DNA from: a virus
Taxonomy: Duplodnaviria; Heunggongvirae; Uroviricota; Caudoviricetes
Direction: 5' to 3' (one strand)
Length of the DNA stretch: 39,757 nt
Virus record (IMG/VR): IMGVR_UViG_2541047752_000002
This document shows positions 36,099-38,832 of this stretch, in pieces; position 1 is the stretch's first letter; the number at the start of each line of letters is the position of its first letter. Below the pieces are notes generated by a model. It saw only the letters and a program-made list of their open reading frames with translations. It was not told the origin of the DNA and did no database searches. Both the position numbers and the translations under genes were made by a program.

Positions 36099-37556
36099 TT
36101 ATTTGACGTAAATGTGGTTTCTGTATTTGACAAAAATCACATCACACACGCTTTCAATATCTTCAGGTTGACCATAAATTTTCTTCACAATATTCAATTG
36201 TTCTTTATTCTCAAGAATAAAGAAATTATTTCCTTTGTTATACCATTCGCTATTTGTAAGCCAGTTATCTCTTTTTATTTCATTGTTATTAAAAAGTATA
36301 TTTGCTATTTTTATGTCTCCATTCACACCAACAGAGTTAGTAAATGTGAAAGGGGCATATCCATAATTTGCTTTGTGCTCGTTGATTTTTTCTCTAATAC
36401 ATGACATCTGATTGTATCTATTATCAGTGGAGCCATTAATATTTATTGTTTTAATTCCTGATATTATACCCAAAAAAGCTATTAATAAAATAATGCTTTT
36501 TTTATTAAATTTAGATCTTGACAAAAGAATTACTGCCATAATGAAGACGGGAACAAGGTATCTTATTGTCCATATATTTCTTGGGAGGTTACTACCAATA
36601 TAAGCAGATGTCATGATTAAAATAGACAATGACAAACATATATCAATAACGCTTCTGTTTTTAAAAAGATTTCTGAAAGTGAAGTAAATTAATGCAACAA
36701 CACCAGCAAAGCGTATTGCTTTAGATAATAGATGCAGTGATGGTGTTATTTGCTCACCAAATATGTTTGCATTAAAAAACAATAAAGTTCCGCTTACTGC
36801 AGTATTTATATTAACTAAAATATTGTCATACTCAACAATCTTTACATCTGTTAGTCCTGGCAATGTAAAGCTTCCAAGGTTTAAAAACAAAAAACCGATC
36901 GCCTTGGAAATTAAATATGAAGAAAACAATCCAGCCATTATAATAAGGTATTTCTTTTTTCTTTCCTTGTGCAACAAAAATATTGCTGCTAATGTTAGCG
37001 GTGCAACGTATATATAGACTGAGATATTATCGCTAAAAATAGCCATAGAGGATAGTATGGTTGAAAAGTATACAAATAATATATTTTCTGTTTTAATATA
37101 CTTTTCTGTAAATATTAAGCATCCAATGATAAATATGTATGTACCCATGTGAATGCACGCTGAAAGCATTGATGTAACAGCCATGTCAGCAGGGAAAACA
37201 AAGTAGAATATAATTAGCGCTAATGCTAATGATTTATTTGTAGACAGCCTGTATATCAAAAATATCACAGTAGCATACATCGCTGGTGGTATTATATATG
37301 CAAGCTCACTGCTGTAGCCAAATAATATAGAGGCGATCGCATAAAAAGATACTTCTGTAAAGTAAAAAGGAACCGTGGATAGCATCCATCCATGAAGTAA
37401 GTAATTACCTTCTGACATATCCTTACCAAGCAAAAGCACTGTTGCCGCATCTGTATTTGGTGGGAATATGTTTAAGCTGGCAAAGTGATATAGCATAAAC
37501 AATGACGCAAATAATAAAATCACGAATATAAATTTAATTTGTTTTTTGAAAATCAT
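36099..37556 (-). CDS. Serotype-specific O-antigen glucosyltransferase (Gtr type, polytopic membrane protein)
   Basis: 485-aa very hydrophobic AT-rich ORF immediately downstream of gtrA-gtrB. Confidence 0.75.
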   Translation of the reverse strand: MIFKKQIKFIFVILLFASLFMLYHFASLNIFPPNTDAATVLLLGKDMSEGNYLLHGWMLSTVPFYFTEVSFYAIASILFGYSSELAYIIPPAMYATVIFLIYRLSTNKSLALALIIFYFVFPADMAVTSMLSACIHMGTYIFIIGCLIFTEKYIKTENILFVYFSTILSSMAIFSDNISVYIYVAPLTLAAIFLLHKERKKKYLIIMAGLFSSYLISKAIGFLFLNLGSFTLPGLTDVKIVEYDNILVNINTAVSGTLLFFNANIFGEQITPSLHLLSKAIRFAGVVALIYFTFRNLFKNRSVIDICLSLSILIMTSAYIGSNLPRNIWTIRYLVPVFIMAVILLSRSKFNKKSIILLIAFLGIISGIKTININGSTDNRYNQMSCIREKINEHKANYGYAPFTFTNSVGVNGDIKIANILFNNNEIKRDNWLTNSEWYNKGNNFFILENKEQLNIVKKIYGQPEDIESVCDVIFVKYRNHIYVK

Positions 37557-38473
37557 TATTTATTACCCTTTAATATATACTTTGGACGCTGCTTAACCTC
37601 AACGTAGATACGCCCTATGTACTCACCTAGCACTCCAATCCCAATTAACTGGATGCCGCCAAGAAATAATATTGATACAAGAATTGAAGGGTATCCAGGT
37701 ACATTATTACCAAAAATTAATTTATCAATTATCATCCATGAACCGTATGTAAATGATATACATGCAATAAATAACCCAATATAGGTCCACATGCGAAGCG
37801 GGAATGTTGAGAAGCTAGTGATCCCTTCCAGCGCCAAGTTCCATAGCTTCCATCCATTGAACTTTGTGCTTCCTGCAACGCGTTCTGCTCGCGCATATTC
37901 TACGACATCGGTTCGACCACCAACCCAGCTCAGCACACCCTTCATAAACAGGTTTCGTTCTGGCATGAGCTTAATATTTTCTACTACTTCGCGAGACATG
38001 AGCCGGAAGTCGCCAACATTCTCTTCTATCTGAGGGTTGCTGATTTTGTTATGAAGTTTATAGAACCACTCAGCAGATTTACGCTTCAGCCTGCTGTCAG
38101 TGGAGCGGTCAGAGCGTTTAGCCAGAACCATATCTGCACCGGCCTGCCATTTCTCTATCAAGTGAGGAATAACTTCGATAGGGTCTTGCAGATCAACGTC
38201 AATCGGGATAATTGCCTCCCCGGTAGCATGGTCCAGACCTGCGAACAGGGCGGGTTCTTTGCCGAAGTTACGTGTGAACGACAGCGAAACCACAAGCGGG
38301 TCGGCAACAGCGAGCTCGTTGATTATTGATTCTGTAGCGTCTTTGCTGCCATCGTTTATGAAGACTATCTCGACTTCATGCTGCTGAAGCCCTTCAAATT
38401 CGCGCACAGTTTTATAAAAAATAGGTATCGTGGCCTCTTCGTTAAAGACCGGAACGACTAAAGAAATTTTCAT
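37556..38473 (-). CDS. gtrB: Bactoprenol glucosyltransferase GtrB (GT2 family)
   Basis: 305-aa ORF; N-terminal GT2-like region ([13 protein letters not shown]…) and C-terminal transmembrane helices. Confidence 0.88.
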
Positions 38474-38832
38474 TTCGCATCCCTAAAGACAATGAACTTT
38501 GAATAGACGAAACCGCACACCAGGCTGATGGCGGAGAAGGTGACAAGAGTTATCATCGGGGGAAGTGCGCATCTATCAGCAGCCCATCCAACAGTAGCAC
38601 TGAGTGTTCCCATGAACCCGACATATAACATGTAGCGCATCGTTGTAGTTGATGCTTTGAATGTGAATTTTGCATTCGCGAAGAAGCTAAAACTCACAGC
38701 CACAACGAAACCTGCGAAGTTTGCCAGAGCCTGATTGGTATGCGCGGCATAGATACATACACCAAAAACCACCCAGTGTATAAGTGTGTTCAGCACACCA
38801 ATCGAGGTGTACCTTGCAAATATATTTAACAT
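38470..38832 (-). CDS. gtrA: GtrA flippase for bactoprenol-linked glucose
   Basis: 120-aa four-helix membrane protein upstream of gtrB with 4-bp overlap. Confidence 0.85.

Follow-up and report, generated by a model that had tools for sequence, protein, structure and literature searches.

Glucosyltransferase (Gtr) cassettes are a well-understood route by which temperate phages alter the serotype and the phage susceptibility of their hosts. The gtr operons of Salmonella (GtrC families I-X) combine conserved gtrA and gtrB genes (gtrAB) with a very diverse gtrC, each family being matched to its O-antigen backbone, and they lie at phage integration sites and show recombination between modules (PMC3688519). 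In Shigella flexneri, GtrI adds glucose (Glc) in an alpha-1,4 linkage to N-acetylglucosamine (GlcNAc) and thereby defines serotype 1 (PMC3636060). Five Escherichia coli serogroups, O17, O44, O73, O77 and O106 (hereafter the O77 group), share a backbone of mannose (Man) and GlcNAc, Man-Man-Man-GlcNAc, and differ only by Glc side branches that have been attributed to prophage gtr genes; within the group, only the O44 gtr prophage is reported to have been confirmed (PMC7685785). Two glucoses are described for both O73 and O106, and the O73 transferases have been reported as unidentified (PMC10304059). All five serogroups have one O-antigen gene cluster and are not separable by DNA-based serotyping (PMC13188871). 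Here we describe a gtr cassette in the IMG/VR record IMGVR_UViG_2541047752_000002, a 39,757-nucleotide (nt) stretch of Caudoviricetes DNA that we refer to in its entirety as the window. With a probability of about 0.72, we consider it a working three-component O-antigen glucosylation (serotype-conversion) cassette whose third protein, GtrC, acts most likely on the O17/O44/O73/O77/O106 backbone. The kind of cassette is ordinary; GtrC is a new, unassigned member of a GtrI-like GT-C glycosyltransferase family.

The open reading frame (ORF) list places three genes at exactly the coordinates (36099-38832) that an earlier note, made from the sequence alone, had given for a minus-strand gtrABC cassette:

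38470-38832, minus strand, gtrA, 120 amino acids (aa)
37556-38473, minus strand, gtrB, 305 aa
36099-37556, minus strand, gtrC, 485 aa

The genes overlap by 4 nt at gtrA/gtrB (ATGA) and by 1 nt at gtrB/gtrC (TAATG), a packing so tight that the arrangement is read as one operon, in which gtrC would be translationally coupled to gtrB. The identification of the first two genes as GtrA-like and GtrB-like was borne out by domain and phage-family searches. GtrA matches PF04138 (GtrA_DPMS_TM, E 2e-13) and, over residues 1-120 of 120, phrog_2224 'GtrA-like O-antigen conversion' (E 3e-69); it is 100% identical to the GtrA proteins of related E. coli prophages, 95% identical to that of Escherichia phage HF4s and 87% identical to that of Shigella phage SfV, and is a small membrane protein and putative flippase for glucose linked to undecaprenyl phosphate (Und-P). 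GtrB matches the GT2 family PF00535 (E 3e-30) and phrog_841 'GtrB-like O-antigen conversion' (E 7e-166), shares 87% and 90% identity with the SfV and HF4s proteins, respectively, and ends in two hydrophobic segments (231-250 and 260-287). Its sequence-based assignment as a GT2 bactoprenol (Und-P) glucosyltransferase is unambiguous.

The third gene is, as expected, polytopic and AT-rich, with about 10 hydrophobic segments in a hydropathy scan and a GC content of 30.7%. GtrC finds no match in Pfam or in NCBIfam even at E 10; its only library matches are PHROGs of unknown function that cover the C-terminal part, and the source names read for 15 members of its 213-member protein cluster were all 'hypothetical protein'. 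A word-indexed protein search returned three clusters only, from E. coli (99% identity), Salmonella enterica subsp. arizonae (87%) and Enterobacter hormaechei (52%), and tblastn against all 50,697 phage records gave no match at E 1e-5. An exhaustive profile search, by comparison, recovered 1,241 representative clusters at E <=1e-3, 60 of them below 1e-30, and thus defines a sizeable GT-C family without a curated model. Residues D36 and N51 are invariant in an alignment of 84 homologues with 18-87% identity to GtrC, and G50, L54, W57, L59, H136, D176, P186, R332, Y333, G399 and W438 are among those conserved in at least 90% of them.

Structure prediction with AlphaFold2 was unusable with a 4-sequence alignment (predicted local distance difference test score, pLDDT, 43), whereas the 84-sequence alignment gave a pLDDT of 95 and a predicted template modelling score of 0.93. 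The model comprises about 13 helices and, at the C-terminus, an alpha/beta domain. Among the first 20 structural matches, 17 are GT-C enzymes using polyprenyl-phosphate sugars and three are subunits of the glycosylphosphatidylinositol (GPI) transamidase (PIG-U/GAB1); the neighbours include ALG12, GPI mannosyltransferase I, STT3B, AglB, Pmt4, ALG9, AftB, DPY19 and PglB, and a Foldseek search agrees with the GT-C matches. In the model, then, GtrC has a GT-C fold with a multi-helix transmembrane core. Sequence searches of the PDB with both a single GtrC profile and the family profile found nothing. In GT-C enzymes the catalytic acid lies in the first periplasmic loop. The first transmembrane helix spans residues 2-30 and ends six residues before D36, and the N-terminal end is rich in lysine, so that D36 is modelled in the first periplasmic loop and is the likely catalytic residue. 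The GT83 enzyme ArnT, which transfers 4-amino-4-deoxy-L-arabinose from Und-P to lipid A (Und-P-L-Ara4N:lipid A transferase; PDB 5f15/5ezm), has 9% identity to GtrC and differs from it in the sugar and the acceptor proposed, in being chromosomal rather than phage-borne, and in lacking a partner pair of the GtrA/GtrB type.

Comparison of the 485-aa protein with characterised type-specific Gtr enzymes, the check that the earlier note had proposed, identified GtrC as a remote homologue of S. flexneri GtrI within what its sequence marks as a GtrI-like GT-C family. A hidden Markov model (HMM) of the GtrC family matches GtrI of phage SfI at E 2e-40 (127 bits), hhalign aligns the family with it over 453 columns (99.4% probability, E 8e-22), and BLASTP gives 25% identity over 426 aa. 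The supposition that GtrC is unrelated to every characterised GtrC was therefore wrong. The aspartate after the first transmembrane helix, the histidine of 'IHMG', the aspartate of 'SDN/SDP' and the arginine of 'RY/RF' align between the two proteins, and in SfI, an SfV-like phage, gtrI likewise follows gtrA-gtrB as the third gene and adjoins the att site. The sole Pfam match of GtrI, to PMT_2, falls below threshold; the want of a curated model for the GtrI-like family explains the 'hypothetical' labels. Homology did not extend to other Gtr transferases: hhalign of GtrC against GtrV, the HF4s GtrC and the 495-aa allele introduced below found nothing, GtrV, GtrIV and the epsilon34/HF4s-type GtrC gave hhalign probabilities of 0.1-0.2% and non-significant HMM scores against the GtrC family, and GtrC does not match PF14264 (Glucos_trans_II) even at E 10, against E 2e-30 for GtrII and E 1e-26 for the 495-aa allele. 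The Salmonella gtr operons follow the same three-gene logic as the window cassette, and the only Salmonella family compared directly, the P22-like GtrC, is unrelated. GtrI and GtrC are only ~19-25% identical, and the acceptor of GtrI is the GlcNAc of a Shigella backbone of three rhamnoses and GlcNAc (Rha3-GlcNAc; PMC3636060), whereas the GtrC allele travels with a Man3-GlcNAc backbone; the acceptor of GtrC, and possibly the linkage, should therefore differ from those of GtrI.

Linkage to gtrAB is a general property of the viral relatives. Among IMG/VR contigs carrying relatives with 28-100% identity to GtrC, the relative starts between -21 and +95 nt after gtrB in 41/41, and gtrA lies upstream in all 35 that reach far enough. 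Together with the fold and the GtrI homology, this upholds the proposal that the third gene is the type-specific transferase of a gtrABC cassette, and the adjacent GtrB leads us to infer that GtrC uses a polyprenyl-phosphate-linked sugar donor. The gtrA-gtrB-gtrC order recurs in genomes of S. arizonae, E. hormaechei, Serratia and Enterobacter. In the bacterial genome loci, the relative is directly adjacent to gtrB in 6/11; in three Pseudomonas loci gtrA-gtrB lies ~4 kb away, and in three Lonsdalea loci there is no gtrAB within 5 kb. The ratio of nonsynonymous to synonymous divergence (dN/dS) of gtrC is 0.12 against the E. coli allele in the argW prophage described below and 0.17 against the S. 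arizonae gene, and gtrC is therefore maintained by purifying selection.

Two further observations concern the family at large. Relatives with 30% identity are chromosomal in P. rhizoryzae, P. benzopyrenica and P. oryzihabitans (60% GC), in a cluster that also holds three GT4 glycosyltransferases, an MBOAT acyltransferase, an ABC transporter and gtrA-gtrB, and the family is thus used outside phages too. Another paralogous allele, 32% identical to GtrC, follows a gtrA 100% and a gtrB 96% identical to those of the window, from which it follows that at least three GtrI-family alleles circulate on near-identical gtrAB. One locus with this allele comes from a metagenome-assembled genome labelled Bacillota; its gtrAB genes are 96% identical to those of E. 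coli, suggesting that an enterobacterial contig was mis-binned.

The distribution of the 485-aa allele points to its acceptor. It was found (98% DNA identity) in 14 of 5,426 complete E. coli genomes, and in 14/14 of these carriers wzx/wzy genes of the O17/O44/O73/O77/O106 family are annotated. The corresponding cluster is present in 94 of the 5,426 genomes, giving a hypergeometric p of 8e-26 for the co-occurrence, or 8e-8 on a count of just four independent backgrounds. In all 14 carriers the allele sits in a related prophage at argW and not at att-lambda, the integration site of the window prophage. The annotated his proteins differ among four carriers (PS_131_S11, HYM1, CE0007a and G4/9), and the carriers are therefore not a single clone. 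A second gtrAB-like locus is present in 8/14 carriers, among them PS_131_S11, HYM1 and EcPF15; it was not found inside the argW prophage of PS_131_S11 or in its flank. The probiotic E. coli G4/9 (NZ_CP060073.1) has a gtrC copy 15 nt shorter and an O-antigen cluster broken by an insertion sequence (IS3) element and many frameshifts, which reflects either decay of the system in a rough strain or poor quality of the assembly.

Two other gtrC alleles occupy the same slot of the same att-lambda prophage. A 495-aa allele of the Glucos_trans_II type (GtrII / P22 GtrC type, PF14264) is carried by 35 genomes, among them that of the O17 type strain K12a; the K12a protein is 26% identical to P22-like GtrC and has no detectable sequence relation to the window GtrC. 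A 491-aa allele was found in the O44 strain E. coli 042 (O44:H18) and 11 other genomes. In 042 the prophage lies at att-lambda next to ybhB, as in the window, its gtrAB are 99.7% identical in DNA to those of the window, and its gtrC (WP_000038425.1, NC_017626.1 914835-916310), also annotated 'hypothetical protein', is 31% identical to GtrC over the full length (E 3e-77). By sequence this 042 protein is a member of the GtrI-like family and a paralogue of GtrC, and it presumably places glucose elsewhere than the 485-aa allele does. Both the 495-aa and the 491-aa allele were found in O77-group genomes, the former being confined to them as far as checked. The genome sets of the three alleles do not overlap and together make up 61 of the 94 O77-group genomes.

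The established Gtr model guides our predictions of donor sugar, acceptor, anomeric outcome, expression, O-antigen change, superinfection exclusion and effect on phage adsorption. GtrB would transfer glucose from UDP-glucose to undecaprenyl phosphate at the cytoplasmic face of the inner membrane, GtrA would move Und-P-glucose to the periplasmic face, and GtrC, with Asp36 as the likely catalytic residue, would transfer the glucose to one sugar of the O-unit. Since GT-C enzymes act with inversion on the beta-linked lipid donor, the linkage formed is probably alpha. The acceptor would most likely be the Man-Man-Man-GlcNAc backbone common to the five serogroups, and the position glucosylated most likely differs from those of the O17-type and O44-type alleles. 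Since K12a and 042 carry other alleles, O73, O106 or an unrecognised variant remain for the 485-aa allele. It may contribute one O73/O106 branch, or define an unrecognised single-branch form; we see an even chance that it is the missing determinant of one O73/O106 glucose branch or of an unrecognised sixth O77-group antigen.

Several observations weigh against a working, O77-group-specific cassette. The window contains no O-antigen cluster, so that the O-antigen type of its host is not readable from it. All 14 carriers, and the others checked, are typed in silico only; the Symbioflor G4/9 strain and the ANSES O77g set, searched for serologically typed allele carriers, likewise gave in-silico types only. 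The carriers are also partly clonal, comprising three 'PRO_A' isolates and one strain represented twice (HYM1 and T-HYM1). Only one gtrAB-like locus was detected in 6/14 carriers at the sensitivity of megablast, though O73 and O106 are reported with two glucoses. The periplasmic position of D36 rests on the model and the positive-inside rule, and a scan of 38833-39175 found no consensus sigma-70 promoter upstream of gtrA.

The alternative that survives best, an unlikely one in our estimate, is that the cassette is intact but without effect in the host of the window, either because the O-antigen does not match the acceptor or because the host is rough, the genes being passengers. The host O-antigen cluster lies outside the window, G4/9 carries the allele beside a broken cluster, and two Salmonella GtrC families caused no shift of the lipopolysaccharide (LPS) even under constitutive expression (Davies et al., PMC3688519). 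Against this stand the same O-antigen cluster in all 14 complete allele-carrying genomes, the purifying selection on gtrC, and the best chromosome match to the left part of the window including ybhC, which is strain GF60, also of the O77 group.

GtrIc is known to act on the product of GtrI in Shigella flexneri 1c. By analogy, GtrC could attach its glucose to one that another Gtr enzyme has already added, in which case it would have no effect without a partner gtr locus. The second gtrAB-like locus in eight of the 14 carriers and the two glucoses of O73 and O106 (PMC10304059) fit this proposal, but the window-type gtrAB locus occurs alone in the other six, and the two O73 glucoses are on two different mannoses and not on each other (PMC10304059). 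We regard a second-glucose activity as rather improbable, somewhat more so than a cassette without effect.

It is more doubtful still that GtrC acts on another glycan, such as enterobacterial common antigen, LPS core, capsule or a periplasmic protein, with the O77-group link reflecting shared ancestry. The structural neighbours do include transferases acting on lipid A (ArnT) and on proteins (PglB, PMT), and the Pseudomonas relatives lie in a larger polysaccharide cluster and not in a phage. However, the characterised homologue GtrI acts on O-antigen (PMC3636060), and the annotated his proteins differ among four carrier genomes. Moreover, three different gtrC alleles, two of them GtrI-like, have each been seen, as far as checked, only with this one O-antigen group, as would be expected of O-antigen modifiers matched to their acceptor. 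Finally, GtrC could be an already known determinant, that of O17 or of O44, a suggestion prompted by the shared prophage type and integration site and by the near identity of gtrAB to those of the O17 type strain and 042. Gene content refutes it, as the 495-aa gene of K12a is unrelated, the 491-aa gene of 042 is a 31% paralogue, and the 485-aa allele is in neither; it is the least credible alternative of all.

Our preferred reading, a working cassette matched to the O77-group backbone, has a practical side. Confined to O77-group genomes, the 485-aa allele is a candidate and testable marker for serogroups that DNA typing lumps together. If the reading is true, the 485-, 491- and 495-aa alleles could separate by sequence the serogroups now lumped as 'O77g', including lineages related to the 2025 outbreak of Shiga toxin-producing E. 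coli O77g:H18.

The earlier note had also taken the distinct composition of gtrC as a sign of recent acquisition, and this part did not hold. GC content is 45.5% in gtrA, 44.4% in gtrB, 30.7% in gtrC (28.8% at third codon positions) and 51.8% in the rest of the prophage. Other gtrC genes are similarly AT-rich (495-aa allele 30.8%, gtrV 33.3%, S. arizonae orthologue 29.4%, Enterobacter genes 33%), so that a GC content of ~30% marks the enterobacterial gtrC gene class, unrelated families included. Low GC was accordingly ruled out as evidence, being common to unrelated gtrC genes. The S. arizonae orthologue, at 29.4% GC, has already diverged from the window gtrC to a synonymous divergence (dS) of 0.42. 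Between the same two loci dS is saturated for gtrA (1.7-1.9) and could not be estimated for gtrB; the contrast between gtrC and gtrA indicates that gtrC moves independently of its partners.

An exchange of the gtrC module is nevertheless real, as judged from prophage comparison and not from composition. By blastn, the window is homologous to the O17-type att-lambda prophage at 33001-35959 and 37538-39757, with no homology between, and the flanks of the exchanged segment are 97.8-98.5% identical. Homology to the argW prophage with the same gtrC extends as far as 38961, beyond which the window has the lambda att module instead. Three IMG/VR contigs repeat the window arrangement at 99.3-100% identity, and the configuration is therefore not unique to the sample of the window. 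The record IMGVR_UViG_2563366979_000002 is 99.98% identical to the window over 34001-39757. The features surrounding the three genes are as follows:

35301-35705, plus strand, tail-fibre assembly gene (Caudo_TAP, PF02413, E 1e-32), the final structural gene ahead of the cassette
35960-37537, no strand assigned, exchanged module comprising gtrC and 139 nt of its 3' flank, the sole segment differing from the O17-type att-lambda prophage
36050-36090, minus strand, terminator-like hairpin without a U-run (13-bp stem, 15-nt loop), beginning 8 nt past the gtrC stop
38833-38961, minus strand, leader and putative promoter region ahead of gtrA, common to the argW prophage with the same gtrC
38990-39190, no strand assigned, lambda-type sib hairpin, attP P-arm and attR core (core 39176-39190), the prophage end adjoining the cassette

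The position of the cassette between the tail fibres and sib/attR, as the earlier note had it, is thus bounded by the tail-fibre assembly gene on one side and the attR core on the other. The lambda att core GCTTTTTTATACTAA occurs twice in the window, at 1331-1345 and at 39176-39190, the latter 344 nt past the gtrA start, and two matches were obtained in 0/100 shuffles. The stretch at 38990-39190 resembles the lambda P arm and sib. With ybhC and ybhB (39281-39757) outside the two cores and a lambda-type integrase with the lambda arm-binding domain (1419-2489) inside them, the element is identified by its sequence features as a 37.8-kb prophage at att-lambda. A baseplate and tail-fibre set of the Mu/SfV type lies between the cores. 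The prophage is SfV/CPS-53-like and has a Mu-like tail, and the cassette would be carried as a moron at its attR end. The same layout of tail-fibre assembly gene, cassette and att end is seen in the Shigella serotype-converting phages SfV, SfII, SfIV and SfI.

The hairpin past gtrC folds as RNA at -23.4 kcal/mol (z -5.0), a stability equalled in 0/200 shuffles, and the records of both SfV and SfII have a rho-independent terminator annotated in the corresponding position; a consensus terminator scan did not report it, the loop exceeding the 8-nt maximum of the scan. Between gtrA and attR there is a single GATC (38887), unlike the four-GATC Dam/OxyR phase-variation region of the P22-type gtr operons of Salmonella; no search was made for OxyR sites.

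The stretch that separates the tail-fibre assembly gene from the cassette (35706-35961) holds tail-fibre debris, at a place where related prophages have an inverted partial tail-fibre assembly gene annotated. A 48-aa ORF within it (35815-35961) resembles a tail-fibre C-terminus, and homology to the O17-type prophage stops at the end of this ORF, at 35959. Elsewhere in the prophage, two overlapping minus-strand genes at 12860-14237 run opposite to the surrounding phage genes and encode a 133-aa ThsB-like TIR protein (PF08937, E 4e-18; PADLOC ThsB, E 2e-12) and a 329-aa caspase-like peptidase (PF00656, E 1e-17; PADLOC 'caspase', E 2e-19), a pair with the look of an anti-phage defence carried by the prophage. 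Immediately upstream of the terminase region, two further minus-strand ORFs on the opposite strand, 15876-16511 (211 aa) and 16555-16908 (117 aa), have no Pfam or PADLOC matches and may be additional morons.

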